Of a stretch of DNA of 52,876 nucleotides, positions 19,994 to 52,876 are shown one piece after another. This DNA is from a virus (lineage: Duplodnaviria; Caudoviricetes), in the IMG/VR virus record IMGVR_UViG_3300030330_000436, positions 1 through 52,876 of that record; one strand, 5' to 3'. Numbering within the stretch: position 1 is the stretch's first letter; every line of letters starts with the position of its first letter. Under the pieces are notes generated by a model that was given only the letters and a program-made list of their open reading frames with translations, searched no databases and was not told the origin of the DNA. The translations under genes were made by a program, and so were the position numbers.

Positions 19994-20345
19994 AAAATAG
20001 AGAGTCTTTCTTGTGAAGGCACTCCCTCTTTTCCCCTAGATAACACAGAGACGGTTACTCTGCACATAAACACACGGTATTGAGTGCATCACAGTTTGCT
20101 ATATTTTACTCCGTGTTAGAACTTCGCCGTAAAAGTATCATTTGCAACTGATAATCTTTAGTCGGGTCTAACTCGCCGTATGCAAAATAGGGAGTCTTTC
20201 TTGTGAAGGCACTCCCTCTTTTCCCACCAATTTTTATTTTGTGTCGTTATTGGCTTAACCGCTCGAAAGCTCGACATTGTATCTAGCACCCGCTCCTCAC
20301 ACTAGATACCGCAGAGACGGTTACTCTGCACCCAATAGACTATTG
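19994..20345 (-). ncRNA. Putative structured RNA cassette with duplicated hairpin modules
   Basis: ORF-free ~365-nt spacer made almost entirely of stems. Module A at 20302-20331 and 20036-20065 (28/30 identical). Module B at 20184-20225 and 19994-20035 (41/42). Stem differences are G-C to G-U on the minus strand. Confidence 0.65.
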
Positions 20346-24079: not shown

Positions 24080-24268
24080 TCACGTTTCCTGTTCAGTCTC
24101 GTTGTAGATTTTGTCAATCTGATCTTTTGTCAATCGCTTACGTTTATGCTTTATCTTTTTTGATTCCACAACACGCTTACGAAACATAGGATCAGATAGG
24201 CTTGCCGCTGAAAGATTACGTCTTTTCTTTTGGCGCTGCAAGTCTTTTTGCACTCTTCGATAACCCAT
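24080..24268 (-). CDS. Small basic hypothetical protein
   Basis: MGYRRVQKDLQRQKKRRN...PMFRKRVVESKK. First gene after the leftward promoter. Confidence 0.55.
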   Translation of the reverse strand: MGYRRVQKDLQRQKKRRNLSAASLSDPMFRKRVVESKKIKHKRKRLTKDQIDKIYNETEQET

Positions 24269-25267: not shown

Positions 25268-25528
25268 TTGTCAACGATGACTAGCCCAGAGCATGTATTT
25301 TTTGTCAACTGTAAATTTTGTCAATTGTACATTCCAACATCGAGAGCGCGTGACTTTACTTTTATGAATGATAAAAAAGAGTTAAGCCATGTTATTATTA
25401 GCAGCAAGACTGTAAAGTTTACTTGTAACGAATGCAACTACAGATCAGAATCTTTGATGTATACAAAAAGCTATGTAGAGAAAGCATTGCGTAGACTTTG
25501 TACAAAGAAAACTCTTGACAACTCTTGA
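25268..25528 (+). CDS. Hypothetical protein with two CxxC pairs (possible Zn ribbon)
   Basis: CKFC...CNEC. Start uncertain. Confidence 0.45.
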   Translation: MSTMTSPEHVFFVNCKFCQLYIPTSRARDFTFMNDKKELSHVIISSKTVKFTCNECNYRSESLMYTKSYVEKALRRLCTKKTLDNS

Positions 25529-27319: not shown

Positions 27320-27516
27320 TGGCTGGCGAAAGATTAACTTTTATATGGAACGATGACTATGGTGATGCTAGGCCATCTAAAACTACGAGTGACATTTTTA
27401 AAAGATGGAATACATTTTGTGAACAAGACCCTAATTATTCTGTATACTGCACAGACTTTTTGTCAGATGTAATCTGTGAACTACAGGAAAAGTATGATTA
27501 TTTTTGTCAACGATAA
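27319..27516 (+). CDS. Hypothetical protein
   Basis: 65 aa, GGAGG SD, TAATG coupling. Confidence 0.55.
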   Translation: MAGERLTFIWNDDYGDARPSKTTSDIFKRWNTFCEQDPNYSVYCTDFLSDVICELQEKYDYFCQR

Positions 27517-27551
27517 CTTTTGTCAATGCTAACTTTTGTCAATGCTAACTT
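27502..27551. repeat. Three 16-bp-period tandem units containing TTTTGTCAA
   Basis: TTTTGTCAAcgaTAAC TTTTGTCAAtgcTAAC TTTTGTCAAtgcTAAC. Confidence 0.9.
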
Positions 27552-27586
27552 AAAAGGGCCGGGTGATAATTCTTCCCGGCCTTTCT
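27552..27586. terminator. GC-rich hairpin, probably a bidirectional intrinsic terminator
   Basis: AAAAGGGCCGGG-loop-CCCGGCCTTT. Confidence 0.65.
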
Positions 27587-27595
27587 CATGCCGGG

Positions 27596-27652
27596 CGGCT
27601 CGGCTCGGCTCGGCTCGGCTCGGCTCGGCTCGGCTCGGCTCGGCTCGGCTCG
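27596..27652. repeat. Pentanucleotide microsatellite (CGGCT)11
   Basis: Eleven perfect copies at 27596-27650, plus CG. Confidence 0.95.
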
Positions 27653-27688
27653 TCTTCGCTTGTGTTCAATGTCTACAAAAATAAACGC

Positions 27689-27717
27689 TTGCAATCGCTT
27701 CGCACCGCCCCTATTCT
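27689..27717 (+). promoter_or_regulatory. Sigma70-type promoter of the DUF932 gene
   Basis: TTGCAA-N17-TATTCT with an upstream A-tract. Confidence 0.55.
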
Positions 27718-27760
27718 ATGCTCGTACCCATTAACCGTAATAAACAGGAGAAATCGAAAG

Positions 27761-28888
27761 ATGGTACACGCAGTAGAAAACATGGCATTCGTAGGCGACG
27801 TTCCATGGCATGGTCTTGGCACATCGATCACAACAGATACGCCGCTCAAAGAGATACAAGCTGCCGCCGGTCTTGATTGGGAAGTGCAACTTGCGCCTAA
27901 TCATAAAGCTGACGGAACGCCTATCGATGCCAGCTACTATATCGAGCGCATCTCGGATGGCGCTATTCTCGGAAAGTGCGTTACTGAGATGTACAAGCCG
28001 GTTCAGAACTCGCAAATGTTCGATTTCTTCGAGCCATTTGTAGAAGCTGGTTCACTTCATATTCACACCGCCGGGTCTCTTTTCGATGGTCAAAAGGTTT
28101 GGGCGATGGCTTCACCAAATGAAGGCTTCACGCTGAATGGTGATGATACCGTCGTGTCTAATCTTGTCTTTACGTTAGACCATCGAGGCATCGGAGCGAA
28201 CTCTTGCATGTTCACGCCGATAAGAGTGGTCTGCAATAACACTTGGACGCTTGCGCGCGATACTGCGAAAGAGATCATTAAACACAATCACAAGGTGCCG
28301 TTCGACAGCGAGGCAATGGTGACGGCGCTGGGTCTCTTTCAAAAAGAGTTTAGCGACTTTGAGAAGCTTGCCAAGAAAATGGCAAAGCGCGTTCTTACTG
28401 GTGCAGAGGAGCTTGAATACTTTCGGACTGTCTTTGGTGGTAAGGAAAAGACTGACGATAGCGGAAAGGTTATACACTCTCGGGCCGTGCAAAAGGCTAT
28501 CGCATTGGCTCGTGGCAAGGATATTTCTGCGAAGTCAACAAGCGATGCCAAGCTGAAGAAGGATCGTCTGGCTGCTCTCGAAAGACTGATGCAGGAAGCC
28601 GTCAATACTGGCAACACAACCATCGATCTATCGAACGTCGAGACGGCTATTGAGGAACCAGCGGCAGGTGATCGAGTGTTGAACGCCGGACACGATCTTA
28701 AATCAGCCCGTGCAGATGATGACGCGATCACTGTTTGGGGAGCGTTTCAGACTGTCACCAATATCGTTGACCATAACCCAATTAAGGATACCGGGCGGGA
28801 TCGACGCTTCGACGTTGCGCTGTATGGTGGGCAGCGGGATAACAAGGCGAAGGCTCTTGACGCTGCTCGCGAATTGATTGCTGCTTAG
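27761..28888 (+). CDS. DUF932 / TIGR03299-like phage-plasmid protein
   Basis: MVHAVENMAFVGDVPWHGLG...AAGLDWEV...YKPVQN...TAGSL...TPIRVVCNNT...WGAFQTVT. AGGAG SD before ATG 27761. Confidence 0.85.
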   Translation: MVHAVENMAFVGDVPWHGLGTSITTDTPLKEIQAAAGLDWEVQLAPNHKADGTPIDASYYIERISDGAILGKCVTEMYKPVQNSQMFDFFEPFVEAGSLHIHTAGSLFDGQKVWAMASPNEGFTLNGDDTVVSNLVFTLDHRGIGANSCMFTPIRVVCNNTWTLARDTAKEIIKHNHKVPFDSEAMVTALGLFQKEFSDFEKLAKKMAKRVLTGAEELEYFRTVFGGKEKTDDSGKVIHSRAVQKAIALARGKDISAKSTSDAKLKKDRLAALERLMQEAVNTGNTTIDLSNVETAIEEPAAGDRVLNAGHDLKSARADDDAITVWGAFQTVTNIVDHNPIKDTGRDRRFDVALYGGQRDNKAKALDAARELIAA

Positions 28889-29419: not shown

Positions 29420-29446
29420 GCAACACCCTGTTTCCTCCCCCAACTT

Positions 29447-29480
29447 GGCCCCCGGTCTCACAGCCGGGGGTTCTTTTTTG
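29447..29480 (+). terminator. Intrinsic terminator ending the early module
   Basis: GGCCCCCGG-tctcacag-CCGGGGGTT then CTTTTTT. Confidence 0.85.
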
Positions 29481-29910
29481 TGTTCGACATGAATAATTCG
29501 CTAATTAATCAGCAAGCCATTGTGCGCCATAGTCTATTGCGCTTTTCGCTGTGCGTCTGTTTGTGCGCCATGCCCCCCTCGACAGTGTAGAAAATTTGTC
29601 AGTCTGCCTATGGGTCTATGACGTATGCGCGACCCTTACCCATAGTCTGCAAAGGACTGCAAGCGGGTGTCCCCGACAAGACTACATAGCTAAACCTTCG
29701 GCGAGCATTTTGTCACGAATATAGAAAAAATAAGGCGCGGGGCGCGGGATGGGCCACCGGCCACCCCTATACATGTATATACCCATAGACGAATTTTATT
29801 TTATTTTTAGTATGTGAATCATTCGACTACATAGCCCTATGAACTATGTGAATCATTTGTCTATACGATCTCTTAGTATCCTATAGATATCCTTTTGCCA
29901 ACGGAGTATC
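29481..29910. other. Probable physical genome terminus / terminal-repeat region
   Basis: Long non-coding stretch with short repeats, a GC spike at 29734-29767, the palindrome TATACATGTATA and an abrupt switch to AT-rich DNA. Lies just upstream of the TerS/TerL block. Confidence 0.55.
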
Positions 29911-29914
29911 TCCT

Positions 29915-29943
29915 ATTATACACCTAGATTTGCAAGTTGTCAA
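29915..29943 (-). promoter_or_regulatory. Perfect-consensus sigma70 promoter, leftward
   Basis: TTGACA-N17-TATAAT on the minus strand. Confidence 0.85.
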
Positions 29944-29973
29944 GAAAAAAATGCACAAAATACAAAAAAAGTG

Positions 29974-30002
29974 TTGACAACATGGCTAACAGCCTGTATA
30001 AT
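29974..30002 (+). promoter_or_regulatory. Perfect-consensus sigma70 promoter, rightward
   Basis: TTGACA-N17-TATAAT with an A-tract UP-like element at 29945-29970. Confidence 0.9.
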
Positions 30003-30148
30003 AGTATATATAGTGGTGCTATTGTATGTTCACACTTTGCCGACCTCTTGTGTATACATAAACAAAGTACGTGACGGAACACTCAGCACCTCTTACTTAT
30101 CTTTGTGCCACAACGGGCAAAGAACATACAACAAAAGGAGATACAAGT

Positions 30149-31679: not shown

Positions 31680-32018
31680 ATGAACTTAGACGACTTTTTT
31701 CGTGATAAAGCAGCGCAACGTTCAGGAAAGCTGCCTTCAGACGAAGACATGAAAAGGTTTATGCGTATTAAAAAACTTTTGGATAAAGGTGGAGATGAGG
31801 CACGCACTGTATCAAACAAGGATAAAGAATTTTATGATTCTTTAATGAAAAAAATGGACACGACAGGTGGTCGAACGGTATCAGATCAAGACGCTCAAAA
31901 TAAAATGGACGGCGGCATGGTAATGCCAAAGAAAAAGAAGAAAGTAAAAGCTAAAAGGATGATGGGTGGCGGTAAAGTCTACTCACGCGGATCACGAAAG
32001 GCTAACTACAATGGCTAA
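31680..32018 (+). CDS. Small protein with shared C-terminal tag
   Basis: Ends MMGGGKVYSRGSRKANYNG. Confidence 0.7.
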   Translation: MNLDDFFRDKAAQRSGKLPSDEDMKRFMRIKKLLDKGGDEARTVSNKDKEFYDSLMKKMDTTGGRTVSDQDAQNKMDGGMVMPKKKKKVKAKRMMGGGKVYSRGSRKANYNG

Positions 32019-32364
32019 AGATAAATATATTGGACATGATTCTGAAGAAGTAACAAAGGCTATGTACAAAAGATTTGGAAGAATCTTTGGAAATAAAAAA
32101 CTTTCTGAAGTCAAAATACACAATGCTTATGTTAATATGATGAGTAATAAAAATTTTTCTAACCATGAAATCTATGAAATGGCAGGATTTAAGTTTGACG
32201 AAAAACCAAAATCTAGTGTTCACCCAGTACCTGAAGCTGAAGGAGACGTAGGTGGAATGCCTAGATATGCAAAGAATCCTTTTAGAAAGAAAAAAGCTCA
32301 AAAGATGATGGGTGGCGGTAAAGTCTACTCACGCGGGTCTAGAAAAGCTAATTACGGTGGCTAG
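32011..32364 (+). CDS. Small protein with shared C-terminal tag
   Basis: ATG 32011 overlaps the previous stop. Ends MMGGGKVYSRGSRKANYGG. Confidence 0.7.
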   Translation: MAKDKYIGHDSEEVTKAMYKRFGRIFGNKKLSEVKIHNAYVNMMSNKNFSNHEIYEMAGFKFDEKPKSSVHPVPEAEGDVGGMPRYAKNPFRKKKAQKMMGGGKVYSRGSRKANYGG

Positions 32365-33196
32365 TAAAAAAGAAAAAGTGGCAGAACTAAGCCCCTACGA
32401 TTTCCCACGCAGGTTATTAAAAAGCACTGTTACAAAAGAGGGAGTTCCTTTATTTGCAGAAGATTCTCCAAGTGCTGCTACAAATTTAATGGATGCTGCT
32501 CTTTTAAAAATAGATTTAATGGAAAAGGGAACGCCTGATCCTAAAAAATACAAATATAGTGCAGCACAAAAGAAACGACCTTCTACACAGAGATTCATAG
32601 CAGACTGGAACTACGTACACGAAGCAGAAAAAAATAAAAATTTTACCGAAACTTATAAAAAAGCTAGAAAACTTTATAGGCAAGCTAAATCAGAAACCTT
32701 TAAAGAAACAGGAAGACGTTCTTTAAGAAGTTATGATACTTCAAAAAAACCTGACATAGACACTAAAATAAAATTGTCAAAGGAAAGAGACCCCATAAGA
32801 GAATCGTCTATCACAATAAATCTAGATGAAGACACAGGGCAACCTGCAACTTCGTTTGATAGAAAAAAAATGAGACTCGTCAAAGAACGACGCGCTCCAG
32901 AAGTTATGGCAGAACAAAAAAGACTAGAAGAATTGAATAGAAAAAAAGGTAGTTTGCCTGAATATTTAGAGATGTTGCAAGATCAATATGAGCGATCATC
33001 GTACGACGTTTATGGGCGACGGACAAATGAATTTGATCGAAGGTATCTTGCTCCTACCATAGAACGCATACGAGAAGAAATATCTAATTATAATGAGGGT
33101 GGCGTAGTAAAACGTAAGACAAAACGCAAAAATAAACCTAAAGTAACAAAGAAAACCTACTCACGCGGATCAAGAAAGGCTAAATACAATGGCTAA
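32357..33196 (+). CDS. Charged protein with shared C-terminal tag
   Basis: GTG 32357 overlaps the previous stop. Ends YNEGGVV...TYSRGSRKAKYNG. Confidence 0.7.
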   Translation: MASKKEKVAELSPYDFPRRLLKSTVTKEGVPLFAEDSPSAATNLMDAALLKIDLMEKGTPDPKKYKYSAAQKKRPSTQRFIADWNYVHEAEKNKNFTETYKKARKLYRQAKSETFKETGRRSLRSYDTSKKPDIDTKIKLSKERDPIRESSITINLDEDTGQPATSFDRKKMRLVKERRAPEVMAEQKRLEELNRKKGSLPEYLEMLQDQYERSSYDVYGRRTNEFDRRYLAPTIERIREEISNYNEGGVVKRKTKRKNKPKVTKKTYSRGSRKAKYNG

Positions 33197-33372: not shown

Positions 33373-33552
33373 ATGGCAAAAGGTGTCCCACATTATTTTA
33401 AAGATGGAACAAAGCACTCTGGAGGTATGCATAAAATGCCAAACGGGCATGTGCATTCAGGTGCAAGACACTCCAAGACTAGTAAAAGGCTGTATCATTT
33501 TAAAGATTTAAGCGAAACGGCTAAGAAAAAAGCAAAGAAAAAGGGTAAATAA
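33373..33552 (+). CDS. Small His/Lys-rich protein
   Basis: MAKGVPHYFKDG...HKMPNG.VHSG..H...SKRLYH. GAGG SD. Confidence 0.75.
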   Translation: MAKGVPHYFKDGTKHSGGMHKMPNGHVHSGARHSKTSKRLYHFKDLSETAKKKAKKKGK

Positions 33553-33554
33553 AT

Positions 33555-33683
33555 ATGCCGTACTCAAAATATAGCCCAAAACAAAAGAAACTTGCTGCTG
33601 TGGCACCTCCTCGTAAGAAAATTACAGGTGCAGACCTTAAAAAGTTAGCAAAAAAACGTAAACCTCGTACAAAACGAGCGTAA
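33555..33683 (+). CDS. Small basic protein (42 aa, not in ORF track)
   Basis: MPYSKYSPKQKKLAAVAPPRKKITGADLKKLAKKRKPRTKRA. Confidence 0.7.
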   Translation: MPYSKYSPKQKKLAAVAPPRKKITGADLKKLAKKRKPRTKRA

Positions 33684-33684
33684 G

Positions 33685-33963
33685 ATGGCTCAAAAAGCGA
33701 TTCCTCGCACAAAAAAGAACTATCGTGCTACTAAAAAGGGTGCAGGAATGACACGCGCTGGCGTAGCAGCGCATCGTAGAGCAAATCCGGGCAGTAAACT
33801 CAAGACGGCAGTGACAGGAAAGGTCAAACCGGGAAGCAAAGCAGCAAAACGGCGTAAATCGTACTGTGCTAGAAGTGCAGGACAGCTAAAACGATCCTCT
33901 GCCAAGACACGAAACGACCCTAATTCAAGAATACGCCAAGCTAGAAGGCGTTGGAAATGCTAA
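33685..33963 (+). CDS. Small Arg/Lys-rich conserved phage protein
   Basis: GAGMT..GV...RRANPGSKLKTAVT...RRKSYCARS...DPNSR....RRRWKC. Confidence 0.8.
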   Translation: MAQKAIPRTKKNYRATKKGAGMTRAGVAAHRRANPGSKLKTAVTGKVKPGSKAAKRRKSYCARSAGQLKRSSAKTRNDPNSRIRQARRRWKC

Positions 33964-34106
33964 TTCAGCAAAGTCCGCCGACAGATTCTTTTTACAGGTT
34001 TGTATTATATCGAAATAGATTAAATTTTACAAAATCATACGCTAAAACGGCAAAGTATACGGTTATTCAGTCTCATCATGCTGTGGACGTATGGGTATAG
34101 TTTTTT

Positions 34107-35771
34107 ATGACATCAGAGGCATCAACAAACAAAAAGAGGCGCAGAGGAAGACCGCCCTTGCAACCCGGCGAAAAAGGGCGCTACCAGTACTCAAGAGTAC
34201 AAAAAAAGAAAGTAAGCGAGCGCCAAAAGATCGCAGCGCAGAAACAGAGCTTAGAGAGAGCGGAGAAACGGCTACAGAAGCTGAACAAGAAGTCGGAAGC
34301 GTTACGGACATCGGATCGTATCGCTGGCAAAGGTGGCGTACTTGACGAAACAACGATATCTCAACTTCCGGCACAGGTACGAGAGCAACTACAGGAAGAT
34401 ACAGAACTTATCTTCAGTCCAAACGAAGGTCCACAAACGGACTTTCTAGCATCACCAGAAAAAGAAGTATTGTATGGTGGCGCAGCGGGTGGTGGAAAGT
34501 CCTATGCAATGTTGGTAGACCTTTTACGGTATGCTGACAATCCTAACCATAAAGCTTTACTTTTACGACGTACACTTGCAGAGCTAACAGAGCTTATAGA
34601 ACAATCACGCAAACTCTACCCTCGCGCCTTTAACGGTGCAGTATTTAGAGAATCAAAATCAACATGGATGTTTCCGAGTGGCGCTACAGCACTTTTCAGT
34701 TATGTAGATAAAGACCACGACGTTACACGATATCAAGGACAAGCTTTTACATGGATAGGCGTCGATGAACTGGGACATTACCCCACCCCCTATGTTTGGA
34801 CTTACCTTCGTAGTCGTCTCAGAACCACCGACCCCACGCTGGAAACGTATATGCGAGCATCTGCGAATCCGGGTGGTTCAGGTGGTTGGTGGATTAAAAA
34901 GATGTTTATTGATCCTGCGCCACCGAACACGCCGTTCTGGGCCGTCGATCCTGACACGGGAAGAACACTTAAAAATCCAAAGACACAACAACCGCTGTTT
35001 CAGCGCAGGTTCATACCAGCAAGACTTACAGATAACCCTTATCTAGCAGAGTCTGGTGAATATGAAGCAATGCTTCTTAGTTTGCCAGAAGTAGAACGCA
35101 GAAGGCTTCTAGAGGGTGATTGGGACGTAGCAGAGGGAGCAGCATTTAGTGAATTTGACAGAACTGTACACGTTGTTGAACCGTTTGAGATTCCGTATAA
35201 TTGGCCCCGTATACGGGCAATGGATTACGGATATAGTAGTCCTTCTTGCGTTCTCTGGGGCGCGGTAGATTGGGACAACAATCTTTGGATATACCGAGAA
35301 CTTTACGACAAGGGACACACTGGAGAAAGTATCGCAGAACTCATCATGTCTTTAGAGTATGACGATCCTCCAATGACACAATCAGTTTTAGATGGTTCTT
35401 GTTGGTCAAGACATGGCACAGGACCAAGCATAGCAGAGACAATGATTCGCAGAGGCGCACGGTTTACGCCAGCGGACAGAAATCGCATAGCCGGGAAAAT
35501 CGAACTTCACCGTAGACTAGCAATAAAAGATGGAAGAGAACCCGGTTTACGAATTTTTGGCACTTGTACAAATCTAGTACGCACACTGCCTACGTTACCA
35601 CTTTCCAAGACACAATCAGAGGATGTGGACACAAAGGCAGAAGATCATGCGTACGATGCTTTACGGTACTTGTGTATGACTCGTCAGACCGGCTATGCAA
35701 CAAGTTCTATGTTTAATTCTATCAAACAGCAAGAAAGCTATCAACCAGTTAACTCAACATTTGGATATTAA
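34107..35771 (+). CDS. terL: Terminase large subunit
   Basis: PNEGPQ, Walker A YGGAAGGGKS, Walker B IGVDE, ASANPGG, nuclease AMDYG and EDHAYDALRY. Confidence 0.95.
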   Translation: MTSEASTNKKRRRGRPPLQPGEKGRYQYSRVQKKKVSERQKIAAQKQSLERAEKRLQKLNKKSEALRTSDRIAGKGGVLDETTISQLPAQVREQLQEDTELIFSPNEGPQTDFLASPEKEVLYGGAAGGGKSYAMLVDLLRYADNPNHKALLLRRTLAELTELIEQSRKLYPRAFNGAVFRESKSTWMFPSGATALFSYVDKDHDVTRYQGQAFTWIGVDELGHYPTPYVWTYLRSRLRTTDPTLETYMRASANPGGSGGWWIKKMFIDPAPPNTPFWAVDPDTGRTLKNPKTQQPLFQRRFIPARLTDNPYLAESGEYEAMLLSLPEVERRRLLEGDWDVAEGAAFSEFDRTVHVVEPFEIPYNWPRIRAMDYGYSSPSCVLWGAVDWDNNLWIYRELYDKGHTGESIAELIMSLEYDDPPMTQSVLDGSCWSRHGTGPSIAETMIRRGARFTPADRNRIAGKIELHRRLAIKDGREPGLRIFGTCTNLVRTLPTLPLSKTQSEDVDTKAEDHAYDALRYLCMTRQTGYATSSMFNSIKQQESYQPVNSTFGY

Positions 35772-35785
35772 AAAAACCTCTACAC

Positions 35786-38203
35786 ATGGCAGAACTAGAA
35801 GACGAAATAAAAGCCGCAGCTAAAATTATAGATTTTCTTGGCCTAGCTCAAGAAGGTTTTGACCTTTTTAGGTATAAAGAAGCATTAAAACAAAAAACGT
35901 TGGACGGTGCTTTAACGTTAAGAGATGCTTTGTTTATTACATTAAATGAAAAAGGTTTAAAGATATTAGAAAAATCTTTTGTGCAAGACTCTAATTTAGA
36001 AATGGTAGCTAAAATTTTTCCATCTACTACAAATATAGATATACCGGGTGGAGGAACTTTGGCTGTATCTCCTGAACCAACCTCTGCTATGGCAAATTGG
36101 TCTACTCTGATAAATAAAATTAAGAAAAAAACCGGACAAGATGAAAAAGAAATTTTAAATACTCCTATTCAAAGTTATATAAGAGAAGGAGTACCTAAAG
36201 AATTTGATATGGAAAGCGCAAAGGGAGGTGCTTCTGCTTTACGTCAAGGTATTTTTTATGCAAGAAAACAACTTGGATTTTCAGAAAAAGAAAAGAAGAT
36301 AATTCGGGATACATATCTTGACGATATCGCTCTGAGGCAAGAATTAGGTGGTTCAAAAACTTATGGACAAAAAAGATTAGAGGGTAGAGCGCTTTCTACA
36401 CGAAATATACGACCTTCTGATGCACCTTTAATAACACAAGCTGTAAAAGAGGGAATGAGTGTTATAACAGACGCTGATGCTAAAGCAGCTATTATGTATA
36501 ATATTCTTATTCCACACAGAACAGTGCAAGTTTCTCGTTTAAGAATAAATCCTGAAAGAGATGCTAAAGGAAATATTTTAAAAGATGCTACTGATCCGTA
36601 TTTAGACGGAGATCAAATTGTTGTGCCTCAAGAAGGTGCGAAAAAAGGTCAAAAAAGATATACTACTGTTAAACTAACTCCGTTCATGCAAAATTTTCTT
36701 GGACAGATCGCAGCAAATAACCCAGATAGGACATTTCTGTTTCGAGATAATAATGTAGCTAAAACAACGTTTGAAGCTAGAATAAATAACGCACTTCAAC
36801 TTCCGGGCGGTGTAGGAGAAAAAACTCAAGCATTGGTAGACAAAGGTATATTTAGAGGGGCCGTAAGCACTTTTGGAATGCTAAGAAAACTTTCAGCTAC
36901 GTCAACTGCTCTTTATGTTCCGGGTTCTTTTGGTAACTTACGATATATTATGGGGCATACAAGTTTAAAACAAGTTGCTTCAGAAACAGGTATAGATGAA
37001 CAGCAAAAAATATTCTATATAGGAGATATTCAAGAAGGACGTTCTGATTTTGAAGTTATGAAGTTATACGAAGATGAACTTCAAAAAAATTCAGGAGCAT
37101 CAAGTAAAAGAGACCTTTTAAGAAACACCTTTAATATTAGTGAAATTGATCTTCCTAATAGTTTTACAGACCCAGCAATAACAGAAACTCAAGGTAGAGA
37201 TTTAGCAAAAAATGTCTTACAAGAAGTAGAATTTGACACACAACTGAATAATCGTCCTGATTTATCTTTTGAATCTAAATTATGGATAATAGAAAATTTG
37301 AAAACACCAGAAGCATTTAAAGCTTTTGAAGATCAAATAGAACAAGCTCAAAAGGCAGTCGGTAGTGAGTCAGTTGATTCTTTGGATCAAATAATACAAA
37401 GAAAAATAAATCCAGAGTTAAAAGTTGACAGTTCTGTACAAGAAGTTATCAAGGAGCTAGAGGCTCCTGAAGCACCTTCAAAACCCTCTGTAATGCCAGA
37501 ACCTGTTGTTACTTCTCCTGAAAGTGACTTTGATTTTACCGATACACCACAAGAAGATATTCCACAAACAGCACAAGATGCACGTAGACGAGCATCAGAG
37601 TTTTTTGAAGACGAACAACAAAAAAGAGATTTTCTTAGTAGAATGGGTAAAGGTGTTACAAAACTTGGATTAGCTGCGCTAGGAGGCGGTGCAGGTGTTT
37701 TAGCAACTATAGGAGACGCAGCAGCAGATGTCGCGCTAAGTCCAACTGAAGTAGCGTACGGTGGTCTTGATCCAGCAGAGGAGATCATGGGTAGGGCTGA
37801 AAGACGTTCTTTGTTTGCTTCCGATGACATGAGTGACACAGAACTTTTAGAAAGAATGCAAGCTGCATCATCTCAAAGACTTTCTCCTGATATGGCAGAA
37901 CGCACAACTGCTCTTGCAGATATAGAAGCAAACAGAGGGCGTCTTGAGGAGAGAGGTTTTAGTCCTATTGCTCGACAACAAGTAGAACAATCTCAGCGCG
38001 ATCAAAGAGAAAGCGGGTTAGGAGATTATGGAGAAACAACACAAGCAGAATCTATGAGACAACTATTTAGTGAACTGCAAGATGTAGATACAAGTGAAGC
38101 ATTTACACAAGAAGCTAGAAAAGCACGGATAGATGCAAGCATAGATGAAAGAATACAACGAGCAAAAATAGCAGCAGAAGCTGCACAGATATTTAACCGT
38201 TAA
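35786..38203 (+). CDS. 805-aa protein with an internal tyrosine-recombinase-like catalytic domain
   Basis: ILIPHRTVQVSRL...AKKG..R...VKLTP...FLF...TFGMLRKLSAT...IMGH...KIFY matches the R-K-(H)xxR-H-Y order and spacing. Confidence 0.7.
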   Translation: MAELEDEIKAAAKIIDFLGLAQEGFDLFRYKEALKQKTLDGALTLRDALFITLNEKGLKILEKSFVQDSNLEMVAKIFPSTTNIDIPGGGTLAVSPEPTSAMANWSTLINKIKKKTGQDEKEILNTPIQSYIREGVPKEFDMESAKGGASALRQGIFYARKQLGFSEKEKKIIRDTYLDDIALRQELGGSKTYGQKRLEGRALSTRNIRPSDAPLITQAVKEGMSVITDADAKAAIMYNILIPHRTVQVSRLRINPERDAKGNILKDATDPYLDGDQIVVPQEGAKKGQKRYTTVKLTPFMQNFLGQIAANNPDRTFLFRDNNVAKTTFEARINNALQLPGGVGEKTQALVDKGIFRGAVSTFGMLRKLSATSTALYVPGSFGNLRYIMGHTSLKQVASETGIDEQQKIFYIGDIQEGRSDFEVMKLYEDELQKNSGASSKRDLLRNTFNISEIDLPNSFTDPAITETQGRDLAKNVLQEVEFDTQLNNRPDLSFESKLWIIENLKTPEAFKAFEDQIEQAQKAVGSESVDSLDQIIQRKINPELKVDSSVQEVIKELEAPEAPSKPSVMPEPVVTSPESDFDFTDTPQEDIPQTAQDARRRASEFFEDEQQKRDFLSRMGKGVTKLGLAALGGGAGVLATIGDAAADVALSPTEVAYGGLDPAEEIMGRAERRSLFASDDMSDTELLERMQAASSQRLSPDMAERTTALADIEANRGRLEERGFSPIARQQVEQSQRDQRESGLGDYGETTQAESMRQLFSELQDVDTSEAFTQEARKARIDASIDERIQRAKIAAEAAQIFNR

Positions 38204-38231
38204 TTGACAATCAACATAAGGAAACTATATT

Positions 38232-38465
38232 ATGCCTACAGGAAACAAACAAATGTACGGTGCTAATTACATTTCGGGTCAGATGTCGAAGCAGGGCGAA
38301 ATGTCCGATGCTAACGAATCGGCTCTCTATCGCGAACCGCTTGAGTTCGACACTGTAATTAAGCGCAACTACCCTTTGACTGAATCCTTTCCGTCAGAAG
38401 CTGGTAGCAAGCACATGGACAAAAGCGTTCTTGGAAAAATGGCTGAGTCCAGCCCTCACAGTTAA
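38232..38465 (+). CDS. Conserved small hypothetical protein preceding the portal
   Basis: 77 aa, AAGGA SD. Confidence 0.65.
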   Translation: MPTGNKQMYGANYISGQMSKQGEMSDANESALYREPLEFDTVIKRNYPLTESFPSEAGSKHMDKSVLGKMAESSPHS

Positions 38466-38496
38466 TTTTGTATTACACAACGAAAGTTGCATTTAA

Positions 38497-40557
38497 ATGA
38501 AGCAAGAAGACAAGTATGAACTTGTTGGAACCATTCAGTCTCGTTTTGAAGACGCTGAAACTGGAAGGCTTCCCGATGAAGAAAGATGGCTACAGGCTTA
38601 TAAGAATTATCGCGGTATCTATGACTCTTCTACACAGTACCGTGAGAATGAACGAAGTCAAGTTTTTATTAAGATTACAAAAACAAAAGTTCTTGCCGCT
38701 TACGGTCAGATCGTAGACATTCTTTTTTCACAAAATAAGTTTCCCATTTCAGTCGAGTCAACTCCAGTGCCTGAAGGTATTGTGGAGTTTGCTCATTTGT
38801 CTAAAAACCCATCACCTCAACCTGAACAGGAAGAAGACCCTATTGGTTTTCCGGGTGATGGACGAGAACTGCTTCCGGGTGCTATGGAAGCTACACCTTT
38901 AGCAGGTTTAGAAGATCGTTACGAAGGAGCAAATCTAGAAGAAGGCCCAGCCCGTGCAGGAGAACCACAAATAGCTCCTGCCCGTGAGTCTGCACGTTTT
39001 CTAGAAAAGTGTATTCAGGATCAGCTTTTAGACACAAACGCTGTAACTGTAATGCGACACGCTTTGTTTGAATGTGCTTTGCTTGGCACAGGTATTATTA
39101 AAGGACCATTTAACTACAGTAAAACTGTACATAACTGGTCTTTAGATGAGAACACAAATGAAAAAACTTACGCTCCATACGACAAGTCTGTGCCTCGTAT
39201 CGAGTCTGTAAGCTGTTGGGACTTCTATCCTGATCCCTCTGCAACCTCCACACACGATTGCGAATATGTAATTCAACGTCATCGTTTTAATCGTGAACAA
39301 CTTTACGATCTACTCAATCGACCTTTCTTTGACCAAAAAGCTATCGAAGCCGTTCTAGAAGAAGGACCAAACTATGAAGAACGTTATTTTGAAAGTACGC
39401 TCTACAATAACGAAAAAGATACACAAAATGAAAGATTTCGTTACGAGGTGCTGGAGTACTGGGGTATCATGGATACGAACAGTGCCGAAGACGCTGGTCT
39501 TGAAATACCAGCAGATGCGGGACCGTCTATTCAAGTAAACGCTTGGATTTGCGGAAACGAAATTCTTCGTATTGTATCCAATCCGTTTCTACCGACACGC
39601 CTTCCATTCTACTCATTTCCTTTTGAACTGAACCCCTACCAAATCTTTGGCGTGGGTGTAGCGGAGAACATGGAAGATAGTCAGCTTCTTATGAACGGAC
39701 ACGTTCGTATGGCTATAGACAATCTGGCTCTAGCAGGAAATCTTGTGTTTGATATTGACGAAACGCAGCTTGTTCCCGGTCAGTCCTATGATGTATATCC
39801 GGGTAAGGTCTTTCGGCGTCAATCTGGTGTTACGGGTACAGCAATCAACGGTATTAAGTTTCCGAATACTGCTGGAGAAAATATACAGATGTACGACAAG
39901 GCTCGTCAGCTTGCAGATGAGCAAACAGGTATTCCCAGTATCGTACATGGTCAGACAGGCGTAACAGGCACAGGACGTACAGCAGCAGGTCTTAGTATGC
40001 TGATGTCGAGTGCAGGACTCAGTATCAAGACTGTTATTAAAAATATTGATGACTTTCTTCTCAAGCCGATGGGCGAAGCGTTTTTTCAATGGAACATGCA
40101 GTTCAACGACAAGATGACTGAGATACATGGTGATCTAGAAATTAAACCTCGCGGTACAAGCGCAGTTATACAAAAGGAAGTACGTAGTCAACGTCTGACT
40201 GCACTGTTGCAAACAGTAGCTAACCCGATGCTTGCACCGTTTATTAAGATTCCTAATCTGGTACGTGAATTAGCTATCAGTCAAGATATCGATCCTGATC
40301 TTCTTGTAAATGATGTAAATGATGCTGCTGTTTTTGCAGAAGTATTGAGAGGACTAAATGAACGCACAACAGGCGAAGAAGCTTCTCCCGCTGGTCAACA
40401 ACCCGGAGGCATGGGAGCCGCTGGAGGAACACCTACAACAGTTGGGCCAAATGATGCAACGGCAGTTGGTGGTGGCGGAATCGGAATTGGAGATGCGCCG
40501 CTTGCAGGGCAAGCTGGCTTTACTGGAAACACTTCAGAGCCTGAAGGTATCGGTTAA
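38497..40557 (+). CDS. Portal protein
   Basis: EERWLQAYKNYRG...SQVFIKITKTKVLAAY...GTGIIKGP...WDFYPDP...IDNLALAGN...RTAAGLSMLM. Size and position fit. Confidence 0.88.
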   Translation: MKQEDKYELVGTIQSRFEDAETGRLPDEERWLQAYKNYRGIYDSSTQYRENERSQVFIKITKTKVLAAYGQIVDILFSQNKFPISVESTPVPEGIVEFAHLSKNPSPQPEQEEDPIGFPGDGRELLPGAMEATPLAGLEDRYEGANLEEGPARAGEPQIAPARESARFLEKCIQDQLLDTNAVTVMRHALFECALLGTGIIKGPFNYSKTVHNWSLDENTNEKTYAPYDKSVPRIESVSCWDFYPDPSATSTHDCEYVIQRHRFNREQLYDLLNRPFFDQKAIEAVLEEGPNYEERYFESTLYNNEKDTQNERFRYEVLEYWGIMDTNSAEDAGLEIPADAGPSIQVNAWICGNEILRIVSNPFLPTRLPFYSFPFELNPYQIFGVGVAENMEDSQLLMNGHVRMAIDNLALAGNLVFDIDETQLVPGQSYDVYPGKVFRRQSGVTGTAINGIKFPNTAGENIQMYDKARQLADEQTGIPSIVHGQTGVTGTGRTAAGLSMLMSSAGLSIKTVIKNIDDFLLKPMGEAFFQWNMQFNDKMTEIHGDLEIKPRGTSAVIQKEVRSQRLTALLQTVANPMLAPFIKIPNLVRELAISQDIDPDLLVNDVNDAAVFAEVLRGLNERTTGEEASPAGQQPGGMGAAGGTPTTVGPNDATAVGGGGIGIGDAPLAGQAGFTGNTSEPEGIG

Positions 40558-40586: not shown

Positions 40587-42920
40587 ATGTCAACTACTGA
40601 AGACAGCAGAACAGATAGAGAGTTTCGACGTTTTCTCCAGTGGGCAGAAAGCAAAGGCGGTCTGGACAAACAGATGCGGCAATCAAGAGGTGACATTGGC
40701 GCGTATGATACTGGACATTCTGACGCAGGAATTGAATATTTTACAGTAAATGCAGAAGGACAAGAAGGCGCAGGTTTATACGACGATCAACCCGGCGATT
40801 ATTTTGACTTTCCGTGGGCCTATCGTGAGCATCCAGACTATAGAAAATATTGGGGCAGAGGTAACGCATACGTAGGTTTTATTCCTGAACGTCAACCATT
40901 TGTACCACCAGAGCCTCCAGAAATTAGACAAAGTGTTCTATCAACTTTAGGAAGTGATTCTTTAATTGAAGATACTAATCAGTCTTTTGTTTCTAGAGTT
41001 TCTGATGCTAGTAACGTTCAAAATCAGTTAACTGCCTCTACTCAATCTGCTTTACAAGAAATTAAAAAAGACCCTTCTCTTCCCTTTGTAGGTGCAGTAC
41101 GACAAAGTTTTTTAGAAGATGAGGATGAAGATGTAGAGCCTCTTTCTTCTCCACAAGCAAATATTTTAAGAAGTTTTTTAGAACAAGCACAACAACAAAG
41201 AGTTCAAGATTCTCCAGCTTTTCAACAACGACGGCAAGCAATTGCAAGTATTTTGCAAACAAATCCAGCTTTTCTTTCTAGACAGTTACAACAAGTAACA
41301 AGTGCAAATGTTGAGCAGACTGAACCAAAATTTACAAACATACTTGAAGAGATTGCAACAGACCCTGTTGAAGCTTTACAGCAAACTACTACACCTGTTG
41401 ATTTTGTTCGCACATTTGAAGAAGTAGATGGTGGAGGTTTTGATGAAGATGGAGAGGATTCTTTTACATCTACATCTACAACTTCTTTAGGTGATGCTTT
41501 CGGAGGTTTATTTGGCGAAGAGGACTCTGAACCTGCTTTTGGAGATTTCAGCAGCGCACAAATGTCTCAAGCTGCACAGACCATAAGTCAGTCAGAGACA
41601 ACATTTTCTAATGAACAATCAAGTATGCCTACTCCTGCCGAAATTGCAGCGGCAAAAGCAGAGGGTAAAAATACACTTGCAATGCAAGCGGAAAGAACAG
41701 CCTCACTTTTCGGTACAAGAGCTAGTATATTTGGTGACAAGATGAATAATCCACAAACTCTAGGCACCATGATTGCTCAAAATGTTGCAGAGGGTTTTGT
41801 AATGGGTGCAAATCCTGCTTTAGCCGCTCCCATTGCAGGAGGATTGCTTACTCCTGCTGGACTCATTGTAGCCCCTGTTATTGCGGGTATAGGTGCTGCC
41901 GCAGACATAGCTAACTCTACTTTTTCAGGATTTGGTTTTGGTAATTTTATGTCTGCTCTTTTCAATGGTTTAACTTTTGGACTTATAGGAGACAGTATTG
42001 AAGATCAGGAAAACGAACAGGCAGAAAAAGATCTACTTGTAGAAGATATCTTTTCAAATCCATTTCAAACTAAAGATAAAGATCAGGAGTTTGGTAAATT
42101 AGTCGATCAAACCAAGACTGAAGAAGCCATCCGAAGCGAGATTCAACTGGCAAAAGAAATACAAAAATACGAACAAATCGCTAAAGATATTAGAACATAT
42201 AAAGAAAAAGAAAGCTATCAAGACCCCGCAGGAGGCGATCCGGGTGGAATATCTGGACCTACAGCAGGTATGTCAATAGACGAAGGAACATTTGGAGTAT
42301 TTGGTCTGGATACAGGAGACTATGAGAATGGCGACAGTCCCAGTGATGGTGATGGTGATGGTGATGGAGACGGCGCTGGATCAGCATGTTGGGTCGCAGG
42401 AACTCAGATACTTATGGCCGACAATACATATCGTAATATCGAAGATTTAAAAATAGGTGATATGGTTATGTCTTATCCTGAAACTAAAAAGACAAGACGT
42501 TGGAATACACCGCTAGAAGCTAGACCTATTGTATCTCTTCTCGTAGATGTACACCCTGAAATTTGGCATCTAAATGATTCGATGGTATCTGGAACTGAAT
42601 GGATGATTAAAGGCGATGGAACAGCAGCTATTGTACAATGGCTAAATGTAGGCGACACAGTTCTTGGACCTGACAACAATCTAGTAGAAATTACGCGAGT
42701 TGAACCTGCTGAAGGACAGCTAAAGAAACAAGTTATTTACAACTTTGAGACTGAAAATAACTATACTTACATTGCAGACGGTATGAGAACAATACGCGGA
42801 CGCGCTGTAAGAGGAGAGCAATGGGGTAAATCTTATCTGTCTGGAGATACAAATTCCTACGAAGGAAGTATGAAAGATGAATATGTTAGAAAATTTGATA
42901 CAATAAAAAATGCAGCTTAA
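40587..42920 (+). CDS. 777-aa protein with a C-terminal Hint-like domain
   Basis: C601 starts CWVAGTQILMADNTYRNIEDLKIGDMV...LNVGDTV...VIYNFETENNYTYIADG. Confidence 0.8.
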   Translation: MSTTEDSRTDREFRRFLQWAESKGGLDKQMRQSRGDIGAYDTGHSDAGIEYFTVNAEGQEGAGLYDDQPGDYFDFPWAYREHPDYRKYWGRGNAYVGFIPERQPFVPPEPPEIRQSVLSTLGSDSLIEDTNQSFVSRVSDASNVQNQLTASTQSALQEIKKDPSLPFVGAVRQSFLEDEDEDVEPLSSPQANILRSFLEQAQQQRVQDSPAFQQRRQAIASILQTNPAFLSRQLQQVTSANVEQTEPKFTNILEEIATDPVEALQQTTTPVDFVRTFEEVDGGGFDEDGEDSFTSTSTTSLGDAFGGLFGEEDSEPAFGDFSSAQMSQAAQTISQSETTFSNEQSSMPTPAEIAAAKAEGKNTLAMQAERTASLFGTRASIFGDKMNNPQTLGTMIAQNVAEGFVMGANPALAAPIAGGLLTPAGLIVAPVIAGIGAAADIANSTFSGFGFGNFMSALFNGLTFGLIGDSIEDQENEQAEKDLLVEDIFSNPFQTKDKDQEFGKLVDQTKTEEAIRSEIQLAKEIQKYEQIAKDIRTYKEKESYQDPAGGDPGGISGPTAGMSIDEGTFGVFGLDTGDYENGDSPSDGDGDGDGDGAGSACWVAGTQILMADNTYRNIEDLKIGDMVMSYPETKKTRRWNTPLEARPIVSLLVDVHPEIWHLNDSMVSGTEWMIKGDGTAAIVQWLNVGDTVLGPDNNLVEITRVEPAEGQLKKQVIYNFETENNYTYIADGMRTIRGRAVRGEQWGKSYLSGDTNSYEGSMKDEYVRKFDTIKNAA

Positions 42921-42938
42921 TTGAAATAGGGAAAAACA

Positions 42939-51140: not shown

Positions 51141-52876
51141 ATGGTATTTCAAAATAATTTGCTGGCTGGAGTTTCTGGAGCTACTGGCACAACACCGTTT
51201 GACACAACTCTGATTGGCAATTCAGCTTGGTTTAACGGTACTGATTCGCGAATGGACAGTCCGTCATTTTCAGCACAGGTTGACCCTACTTGTTTTACTT
51301 TTGCAACTTGGGTTAAGATAAATTCTTTTTCGGTTACCAATGGGCAATACATTTGGTCAGCAGAGAGAAGCGGAAATTATGCAGCAATAGGTTTTGATGC
51401 AAATGATAAACTATTTGCGTATTCTAATCCTGCCACATTTACCAGCGATATGGTGTTTAGGGATATAGGCTGGTATCACATTATCTGTTCCTACAAGGGT
51501 GCAGCAAACACTGTTCGTATGTTTGTGAATGGTGTTGAAATTACAAATACAGCATCTAATACACTCGCATCACCAAACCCTGAACCTGTTGCACATTCTC
51601 ATACACAACGTATTGGAGCATATTATGTAGGTGCTACTGGTGGAGATTTATACGAAACAGATGCATACTTAGCCCAGACTGTTTTCTTGGATGGTTTTAG
51701 TTTTCAAGATGGTGATATCAGTGTTACTGACTTTCTTGACACATTTACTTTTGGCACAAACGGTTCTCAGTTTATTCCCAAAAAAGATTCTGAATTAGCT
51801 ACACTTGCTGGCACTGCTGGCGCTAACAGCTATGTTTTGGACTATGCAGATAGTTCTGCTTTAGGTAACGATATTAGCAGCAAAGATAATAATTTTACTC
51901 TCACAAATTTGAGCAGTGCTAATCAATCTGAAAGCACACCTAGTAATACCTATGCAACTTGGAACCCTATTTTTGGCCCGTTTGCAGGACATACTCACAC
52001 AGCAACATTGACAGAAGGAAATCTAAGACTGGCAAGCTCAACGAGTAATTACAGCGTCACTACAAGCTCACTGGCGATGCCTGCGGGGTCTGGGAAATTT
52101 GCAGCAAAATTTACAGTCAACACTCTTGGCGGTATTTATCCAGTCATCGGTGTTTTTGACATGGACGGCGACACAACAAGTTCTTTTACAGGTTCTAGTG
52201 ATAGCGTTGGACTAAGAATGGATGGACAAAAGTATGTAGATGGTTCTTCTTCAAGTTATGGTTCAGCAGTTTCAGCAGGTAATACAGTTGAGGTTGAACT
52301 TGATTTGGATAATAATACTGTTGAATTTCTAATCAACGGATCAGCGCAAGGAACTATTAGTAAAACATTTACTGGAACTGTTGTCTTTATGGTGCAAGAC
52401 GGTAGTAACGGAAGCGCAATCGATGTTACAGCGGAGTTTGATTATACTCCAGATGACTCAAGTTTTAAAACTTTAAACACTGCAAATCTTACCGCACCAG
52501 ACTATCAAGGAATAGACTACTTTGATGCTACTATCTATGAAGGTAACGGCGCTGGGCAAAGAGTAGGTGATTTTGTTCCGTTTACAGATGTAGGAACAAT
52601 TACAAAATCATTTTTATGTGATGGTAATACAAATAGCGGCACAACTGATTTAACTATTAGTACCAGCGTATCCACTGCACCTACTGACGTACAAGTTAAA
52701 ACTTTATCTTTTTGGATAAAGCCAGTAAGTGTAAGGGAACAGCATGTTTATAATGCAAGTACAGATGCTACTGATAGCACAGATAGTTCTGAAAGAATTT
52801 ATATTGCAACTAATGGTGAAGTTGCCTATCAAACAAGACAAACTGGCAGTGCTGTAGCACTTGCATACACAGCAGG
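51141..52876 (+). CDS. LamG/SPRY tail protein, 3' truncated (not in ORF track)
   Basis: ATG 51141 MVFQNNLLAG...FTFATWVK...FRDIGWYHI...TLTEGNL. No stop seen before the window end. Probably the same gene as 1-1590. Confidence 0.75.
   Translation, partial: MVFQNNLLAGVSGATGTTPFDTTLIGNSAWFNGTDSRMDSPSFSAQVDPTCFTFATWVKINSFSVTNGQYIWSAERSGNYAAIGFDANDKLFAYSNPATFTSDMVFRDIGWYHIICSYKGAANTVRMFVNGVEITNTASNTLASPNPEPVAHSHTQRIGAYYVGATGGDLYETDAYLAQTVFLDGFSFQDGDISVTDFLDTFTFGTNGSQFIPKKDSELATLAGTAGANSYVLDYADSSALGNDISSKDNNFTLTNLSSANQSESTPSNTYATWNPIFGPFAGHTHTATLTEGNLRLASSTSNYSVTTSSLAMPAGSGKFAAKFTVNTLGGIYPVIGVFDMDGDTTSSFTGSSDSVGLRMDGQKYVDGSSSSYGSAVSAGNTVEVELDLDNNTVEFLINGSAQGTISKTFTGTVVFMVQDGSNGSAIDVTAEFDYTPDDSSFKTLNTANLTAPDYQGIDYFDATIYEGNGAGQRVGDFVPFTDVGTITKSFLCDGNTNSGTTDLTISTSVSTAPTDVQVKTLSFWIKPVSVREQHVYNASTDATDSTDSSERIYIATNGEVAYQTRQTGSAVALAYTA

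Follow-up and report, generated by a model that had tools for sequence, protein, structure and literature searches.

A hypervariable gene in the packaging and head block of a marine phage appears to encode a very divergent tyrosine recombinase. The gene lies at 35786..38203 on the plus strand of IMG/VR record IMGVR_UViG_3300030330_000436, the whole of which (52,876 nt) is the window analysed here, and its 805-aa product, named X, is encoded between the large terminase (TerL) and the portal protein. A preliminary description of this DNA had noticed an open reading frame (ORF) between terminase and portal, and its position is correct. X is read here as a polymorphic, late-expressed DNA breakage-rejoining enzyme that is probably virion cargo delivered with the DNA, a reading to which we give a probability of roughly 0.4.

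A model of X was built with AlphaFold2 from a 20-sequence alignment (A1), and its predicted local distance difference test score (pLDDT) is 85-95 across residues ~205-405. When this model was compared with the PDB by Foldseek, the matches listed were tyrosine recombinases only, the best being XerA (5hxy, E 6.3e-5), with further matches to XerH, lambda Int, IntI, Cre, Tn1549 Int and P2 Int. VIA-align, run over model residues 196-417, gave Brujita Int (5vfz) as the best match (Z 12.0, root-mean-square deviation 3.2 Å, 158 aligned), followed by XerA (4a8e, Z 11.8), lambda Int (1z1b, Z 11.3), P2 Int (Z 10.8), HP1 Int (10.6), Cre (9.4) and Flp (7.6). Variola type IB topoisomerase (Topo IB; 2h7f) scored Z 8.3, the SroF repressor of phage phi3T Z 8.2 and 8.1 (9rd5, 9rgl) and TelA (4e10) Z 7.7; altogether 69 chains reached a Z of at least 8. 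The viral models of BFVD returned only ordinary integrases, at E about 1e-4, with OrNV Vlf-1 at rank 39 (E 1.3e-2). The Foldseek alignments to full-length XerH, lambda Int and Cre span 320-380 columns and extend into residues 1-195, a region that folded alone to an unusable pLDDT of 35.7. The three approaches agree in supporting the tyrosine-recombinase core that had been proposed for comparison with XerD, Cre, TelK and Topo IB types: as modelled, residues 196-417 are a genuine, very divergent tyrosine-recombinase catalytic fold, closest to the integrase and Xer-type enzymes, which score above Topo IB and telomere resolvase.

By sequence, Pfam gave a chance-level AAA_8 match to X and no PF00589, PHROGs gave no match, and the best E value of a PDB sequence-profile search with A1 (20 homologs) was no better than 1. 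PF00589, whose gathering threshold is 27.1 bits, stays below threshold across the family, with best scores of 18.2-18.9 bits (P0013, P0017, P0018, the L004 protein and P0042) and E values of 0.002 for three of the 20 members, 0.0014 for L004 and 0.0022 for P0042. X is therefore filed as a new family outside the phage-integrase family, because it falls below the PF00589 thresholds, has no first active-site histidine (His-I) and has a displaced tyrosine; from the modelled fold, it would found a new, very divergent family in the tyrosine-recombinase/type IB topoisomerase superfamily.

The catalytic residues were placed by hhalign, using 24 N-modules (the recombinase-like parts) of the family against lambda Int, Cre, HP1 Int, P2 Int and CRP-3 Int from annotated phage records. 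Residues 232-399 of the window protein aligned onto lambda Int 199-341 (E 3e-4, probability 39.5%), pairing R245 with R212, K286 with K235, G364 with H308, R367 with R311 and H391 with H333. The alignment ends one residue before E400, the equivalent of lambda Y342; the candidate nucleophile Y411 is found 20 residues past H391 (9 in lambda Int) and thus 11 beyond the canonical position, and the His-to-Tyr spacing varies from 11 to 23 residues across the family. The sequence AKKGQKR, which contains K286, is flanked by model strands at 277-281 and 292-296.

Conservation was counted in a hidden Markov model (HMM) alignment of 51 family proteins, considering only rows with a residue in the column. 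The R245 column is Arg in 45/45 rows, R367 is Arg in 47/47 and is followed by Lys (K368) in 46/47, H391 is His in 46/46 and the Y411 column is Tyr in 42/42. The K286 column holds Lys in 19 of 23 rows, with Lys or Arg at nearby columns in the others. At the His-I position, three residues before the second arginine (R-3), the 47 rows have Gly (14), Lys (13), Asn (9), Arg (4), Gln (4) and Ser, Ala and Thr (one each), Lys being the residue of the Group-B alleles, and His stands at R-4 in 14 of the 47. As R-R-H-Y stays invariant in the HMM-aligned rows although N-module identities fall below 20% and indels occur near the Tyr, we take it to be selected for its chemistry in almost every lineage, the active site being atypical. 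The coordinates given in the preliminary description for the motifs PHR (R245, 36518), AKKG (residues 285-288), GMLRK (R367, 36884), IMGH (H391, 36956) and KIFY (Y411, 37016) are all exact. Its R-K-R-H-Y set is invariant at four positions and mostly kept at K286, and the replacement of the His of HxxR that it had mentioned for telomere resolvases and type IB topoisomerases is seen in the window as G364. The Tyr that it named as catalytic is invariant in the HMM-aligned rows but does not occupy the canonical position.

Comparison of related loci shows that X is a hypervariable, swappable cassette, which is a new finding. At the protein level, locus L003 is 99.6% identical to the window in TerL, 53% in X overall and 34% in the N-module. 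L004 is 99.3% identical in TerL and 99.0% in the portal, with 35% in X overall and 20% in the N-module, the C-terminal 200 aa of its X being 75% identical to the window. The corresponding values for TerL, portal, X and N-module are 91%, 93%, 27% and 22% in L007, and 71%, 73%, 23% and 23% in L015. By blastn, similarity of 85-99% ends at 35786-35794, which is the X start codon, and returns at 37158 (L003), 37684 (L004), 37832 (L005) or 38078 (L007); in L001 the N-module is kept and 37652-38212 is replaced. A contig from seawater run X10 matches the window to 35791 and then enters, in frame, the N-terminus of allele P0016, providing independent confirmation of the allele swap. Run X7 has near-zero cover over X at 90% likeness with the flanks covered, contig depth being no proof of absence, and its single joint of 35771 to 38671, with only 20 letters on one side, was not used. 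The G+C content at third codon positions (GC3) is 0.16 for X, 0.37 for TerL and 0.31 for the portal. Two error-free X pieces, together with TerL and portal pieces, occur in an RNA-library run where DNA carry-over is possible, and are a weak hint of X expression.

A word-indexed search found 20 homologs of X, and when the N-module (alignment A2) served as query in an exhaustive profile search, only 25 of 1.84 billion cluster representatives scored an E of 1e-3 or below, with no canonical integrase among the 25; alignment A3, to which fragments had been added, was too ragged for folding and was dropped. The order TerL, X, portal is kept in 9/9 related IMG/VR loci, wherever flanks exist, comprising seven close relatives together with L015 and L016 (TerL only 71% identical), and the synteny check suggested earlier thus upholds the placement of X in the head and packaging block. 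IMG/VR scans with the distant relatives P0032, P0033 and P0035 returned no loci, while P0040 gave loci. No match to X was found by tblastn in 50,697 phage records, or with the family profile in 477 ORFs from stretches of cultured relatives. In the genomes of 185,579 species, C-module patterns from A1, a search of limited sensitivity, gave 30 pattern matches and 0 relatives. A TerL scan of the same collection gave five loci: the closest, L017 (66%), is an all-phage contig without X, and the remaining four (38-39% identity) are in metagenome-assembled genomes of Clostridia/Oscillospiraceae. The window stretch is present in seawater metagenomes of several studies from 2014 to 2025. A literature search found no report of a phage virion-associated or TerL-portal tyrosine recombinase, the supplements of Qin 2022, which may list the gene as hypothetical, lying outside that search.

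The features of X and its neighbours, all on the plus strand, are as follows.

34107..35771, +: large terminase (TerL), directly 5' of X (phrog_979, 5.6e-59; PF03237)
35786..38203, +: gene X, ATG start, 805 aa; recombinase-like N-module and conserved acidic C-module
35786..36370, +: X residues 1-195, helical N-terminal region, a possible core-binding-like domain (moderate-pLDDT helices in the full model)
36371..37036, +: X residues 196-417, predicted tyrosine-recombinase catalytic-domain fold, basic with an isoelectric point (pI) of 9.7 (VIA, Foldseek, hhalign)
36518..36520, +: R245 codon, box-I arginine, aligned to lambda Int R212
36641..36643, +: K286 codon, beta-hairpin Lys, aligned to lambda Int K235
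36875..36889, +: GMLRK, with G364 (canonical His-I position), R367 (lambda R311) and the family-invariant K368
36956..36958, +: H391 codon, aligned to lambda Int H333
37016..37018, +: Y411 codon, candidate nucleophile, also invariant in alignment A2
37037..37465, +: X residues 418-560, acidic helical region (model; pI 4.45), with the exchange boundary between N- and C-modules at about residue 457-463
37466..37825, +: X residues 561-680, acidic Pro-rich linker by composition (pLDDT 24-37), holding the hydrophobic segment
37664..37714, +: X residues 627-643, Lys-flanked, Gly/Ala-rich uncharged stretch (LGLAALGGGAGVLATIG), then DAAADVALSPT
37826..38203, +: X residues 681-805, most conserved C-terminal helices (RTTALADIE ... 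DVDTSEAFT ... FNR), with nearly invariant columns
38232..38465, +: 77-aa ORF between X and portal, kept in every related locus irrespective of the X allele and outside the variable cassette
38497..40557, +: SU10-type portal (PF23899, 1.1e-29; phrog_332/1216)
40587..42920, +: post-portal 777-aa protein, a second replaced block beside the portal (blastn gaps)

The TerL stop codon and the X start codon are 14 nt apart. The 77-aa ORF is similar to two small pre-portal ORFs of phage HTVC033P; directly before its start codon, at 38204-38231, is a sigma-70-like site (11/12 match) that could be due to chance, the counts in a promoter and terminator scan being no higher than in shuffled sequences. The blastn gaps at 40603-42930 mark the post-portal gene as the second replaced block, and the portal is thus located between two variable large genes. 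The L015 counterpart of the post-portal gene (L015 11056-13827) ends in a PF07486 cell-wall hydrolase domain (52 bits), and such domains are typical of ejected virion proteins. As side observations, residues 601-629 of the window's post-portal protein give a sub-threshold Hint match (PF05203, 23.6 bits against a cutoff of 32.1), and GC3 divides the genes of the window into two codon-composition classes, X (0.16) and the post-portal gene (0.215) being low against portal and TerL (0.31-0.37) and against major capsid protein and DNA polymerase (0.50-0.57).

The part of X that follows the recombinase fold has a layout of its own. Residues 461-805 comprise 345 aa with a pI of 4.45 and a net charge of -28. 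The preliminary description had put about 230 aa before the recombinase core, which in the model already begins at about residue 196, and about 390 acidic, Gly/Ala-rich residues after it; the acidity stands and the size does not. All 23 proteins found to hold the C-module (residues 600-805) also carry the N-module, at lengths of 693-851 aa. In 35 of 37 full-length members, the top hydrophobic window is the Lys/Arg-flanked Gly/Ala stretch, situated 93-222 aa from the C-terminus. Distant relatives differ in C-terminal sequence and keep the same layout, with a charged linker and a Gly/Ala-rich uncharged stretch, and the motif ...A[LI][SE]PT..GG is often present in their C-terminal part. A search of the ESM Atlas with residues 461-805 gave a best score of 0.76, under the tool's quoted chance level. 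A single complex prediction of the portal with X residues 600-805, made without control runs, gave ipSAE values of 0.38, 0.00 and 0.00.

By tblastn, the portal is most similar to that of Pelagibacter phage HTVC033P (54%), then to those of HTVC103P/104P/115P, the Roseobacter CRP phages and HMO-2011 (48.6%), which places the window among the HMO-2011-type marine podophages. The record is the whole IMG/VR entry, 100% complete according to CheckV. Qin 2022 (PMC9038755) describes the HMO-2011-type phages as a marine viral group that is dominant and widely distributed, and portal, TerL, DNA polymerase and helicase belong to the core genes of the group. In HMO-2011 and CRP-3 TerL is directly followed by the portal gene, and in HTVC033P there are four small ORFs between the two; X is missing from all of them. 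According to Qin 2022, some phages of the group are temperate, int, where present, is upstream of the replication module, and lysogeny genes cannot be identified in most subgroups, IV-X among them. The CRP-3 annotation likewise has int upstream of the replication module.

The statement in the preliminary description that no lysogeny module is visible was borne out by the scans. Neither PF00589 nor a tRNA was found anywhere in the record, and no repressor, Xis or integrase was found among 33 PHROG-scanned and 45 Pfam-scanned ORFs. Rfam gave nothing at gathering thresholds over the window and nothing at E of 1 or below over 33500-38600. The X cassette is purely coding, with no non-coding flank adjoining it, and a repeat search over the window found no site-like repeats flanking or pairing with X.

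In the favoured reading, the recombinase domain would make a 3'-phosphotyrosyl DNA break and then reseal it, using an unusual active site that has no His-I, an invariant Lys after the second arginine and a Tyr on a longer, flexible segment, which might even be donated in trans. X would be transcribed with the late packaging genes, as suggested by the 14-nt gap and the strand it shares with TerL. The variable N-module may set allele-specific DNA recognition, while the acidic C-module, with its Lys-flanked Gly/Ala stretch and terminal helices, may tie X to a conserved partner. The procapsid would most likely be where this putative partner is found, and X would then be carried in the virion and act on DNA, either the ends of the phage genome or a host site, at genome entry. 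The virion placement is proposed from the position of X in the head gene block and from the acidic tail with its hydrophobic Gly/Ala segment. On this view X would act as an injected, polymorphic effector and not as a classical phage integrase. The central idea of the preliminary description, a late-expressed and possibly packaged and co-injected DNA breakage-rejoining enzyme, is thereby kept. The full chain, in which X is packaged via its C-module, injected, and breaks and reseals DNA at a site specific to the allele on entry, with the specificity module swapped under frequency-dependent selection, is tentative and, taken whole, somewhat unlikely; its targets could be the phage ends (circularisation), a host site (immediate integration in the manner of a retrovirus) or host or competitor DNA.

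Several observations weigh against X being an active, virion-borne enzyme. The C-module has no sequence similarity to known virion proteins and no PHROG match, and its best BLASTP hit to the post-portal protein has an E value of 3.4. No candidate recombination site was found; long-range inverted repeats in the window are 70-91% complementary and none adjoins the gene. The low GC3 of X is what a cassette that moves horizontally could show, whatever its function. As for the chemistry, His is found at R-3 in 0/47 rows of the HMM alignment, and Y411 is away from the canonical position in a loop (406-418) with pLDDT below 50. The L015 protein has Trp at the first arginine and Lys at the His column, with R-K and the Tyr kept; it was not HMM-alignable and was placed only via P0033 (28% identity over 818 aa). 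If so placed, it indicates that the gene can persist with a degenerate active site.

These last features also favour an alternative in which X is an exapted, non-catalytic recombinase fold, serving head assembly or packaging as a structural accessory or a sequence-specific DNA binder, or acting as a regulator: the L015 protein keeps its full length and position, and SroF, a DNA-bound repressor, has the same fold. The baculovirus and nudivirus protein VLF-1 is a nucleocapsid component from the tyrosine-recombinase superfamily (PMC11654684). Against exaptation, the invariance of R245, R367, H391 and Y411 in HMM-aligned rows at below 20% overall identity is hard to explain without selection on chemistry, and we regard this alternative as distinctly unlikely. 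A divergent phage integrase used for lysogeny is a further candidate, unlikely though well short of negligible. Its alleles would direct integration at different attB sites, attP would be in or near the gene, and the C-module would have been added for regulation or oligomerisation. In its favour, the top structural matches are recombinases of integrase type, the family has kept its catalytic residues, PF00589 weakly matches the more canonical alleles, and the group includes temperate phages. Integrase cassettes are highly mosaic between related temperate phages, so the hypervariability of X does not exclude an integrase, and allele swapping on near-identical backbones resembles the mosaicism of int-att modules. 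What speaks against this role is that no repressor, Xis or tRNA fragment was found in the record, that the swapped block is purely coding from its start codon with no adjacent non-coding attP, and that the known int of the group is sited elsewhere. The search of cellular genomes by C-module patterns, within its limited sensitivity, found no relative of X, the only close TerL relative there belongs to a phage contig without X, and the 345-aa acidic tail is invariably attached.

Two other explanations fit less of the evidence. X might be a selfish mobile cassette whose recombinase drives it into the TerL-portal junction, by insertion or exchange, without benefiting the phage, as could be suggested by the cultured relatives without X, whose junction is empty or has small ORFs, by a GC3 far below that of the neighbours and by the sharp left breakpoint. 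There are, however, no flanking repeats or target-site duplications, the right breakpoints vary within the gene, which fits homologous exchange via the C-module and not site-specific insertion, X is fixed in 9/9 loci whose TerL proteins are 71-99% identical, and a long conserved C-module would not be expected; this explanation is improbable. The preliminary description had proposed hairpin capping of incoming DNA, concatemer resolution or relief of packaging torsion, and X would then be a housekeeping replication or packaging enzyme such as a telomere resolvase, concatemer resolvase or swivel-type topoisomerase. X does adjoin TerL, its fold is common to TelA and Topo IB, and the Group-B alleles have Lys at R-3, as in the K-x-x-R of Topo IB. 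Relatives of the same group that share DNA polymerase, helicase, TerL and portal nevertheless do without X, integrases outscore both TelA and Topo IB, and hypervariability and swapping between backbones are not what one would expect of an enzyme essential for replication or packaging. These roles are disfavoured and very improbable.

Compared with known systems, X shares its predicted catalytic fold with lambda Int, Brujita Int, XerA, P2 and HP1 Int and Cre (Z 9-12), and the first arginine, hairpin Lys, second arginine and His of lambda Int are alignable to it, with the Tyr of X conserved further downstream. It differs from phage and Xer recombinases in remaining below the PF00589 threshold in every member tested, in having no His-I, in its longer His-to-Tyr spacing, in its size of 805 aa with a 345-aa acidic tail, and in being encoded between TerL and portal without an att site, xis or repressor nearby. 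P1 Cre, annotated in P1 as a 'cyclization recombinase', is a phage tyrosine recombinase whose role includes acting on the infecting genome, by cyclising incoming terminally redundant DNA, and not chromosomal integration. Cre, however, has 343 aa, adjoins lox and is not hypervariable, and no lox-like site was found in the window; to our knowledge, Cre is not a virion component. The type IB topoisomerase of poxviruses has the same superfamily fold and is encapsidated in the virion, a precedent for packaging, but it is a weaker match to X than the integrases, and its Lys at R-3 is replaced by Gly in the window and found in 13/47 rows. SroF uses the recombinase fold for DNA binding, whereas X keeps R-R-H-Y in the HMM-aligned rows. 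MuF-toxin fusions are polymorphic virion-delivered effectors encoded next to the portal and, like X, combine a conserved module, presumed to associate with the head, with a variable enzymatic module, and in the X loci identity breaks off where the modules meet. In X, however, the variable module is N-terminal and always of the same fold, and there is no MuF domain. VLF-1 belongs, like X, to the superfamily of tyrosine recombinases and is tied to the capsid and packaging machinery (PMC11654684). The two have only the fold in common, with no specific closeness: VLF-1 is the product of a conserved core gene, whereas X is lineage-restricted and hypervariable.

The sub-lineage with X would thus carry, in its packaging and head block, a putative DNA breakage-rejoining enzyme that is invisible to standard annotation, at one of the two most variable loci beside the portal. 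If X is active, phages assumed to be strictly lytic would have an unrecognised DNA-rearranging capacity. If it is virion-borne, it would counter the statement in PMC11654684 that, baculo-like viruses apart, packaging and virion formation do not implicate tyrosine recombinases. X would then be the first tyrosine recombinase implicated as tailed-phage virion cargo, a prokaryotic-virus parallel to VLF-1 and poxvirus Topo IB. Its alleles, with one chemistry and N-modules that are 20-34% identical, could also provide recombinases of new specificity.

Additional features were observed elsewhere in the window. A 650-nt non-coding stretch at 29420-30070, to which the preliminary description referred, begins with a hairpin followed by a T-run at ~29440-29480 and an imperfect inverted repeat (29907-29943 and 29974-30010, 70% complementary); the repeat search found no link between this stretch and X. 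The record ends inside ORFs at both sides, a tail-fibre-like ORF open at its 5' end (1-1590) and an ORF open at its 3' end (51141-52874). The longest contig with an identical X protein has 54,533 nt, and ~1.6 kb, probably of the tail-fibre gene, may be missing from the record. In the early region, paired TTTTGTCAA(T/C) motifs (family D4) at 24103-24134, 25294-25325 and 27496-27543 are candidate early promoters or operators. A 42-nt direct repeat (19994-20035 and 20184-20225, 98% identity, 190 nt apart) is located between the genes for a Cas4-like exonuclease and a Gp2.5-like single-stranded DNA-binding protein, and a (CGGCT)n pentanucleotide run at 27586-27665, inside the DUF932-family ORF 27563-28888, is a possible slippage-prone tract. 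Upstream of TerL, three consecutive, very basic ORFs end in copies of a 72-nt repeat (31946-32017, 32292-32363 and 33124-33195; 88% and 64% identical to the first) and share the C-terminal tail ..YSRGSRKA.YNG, and they may represent a small paralogous family.

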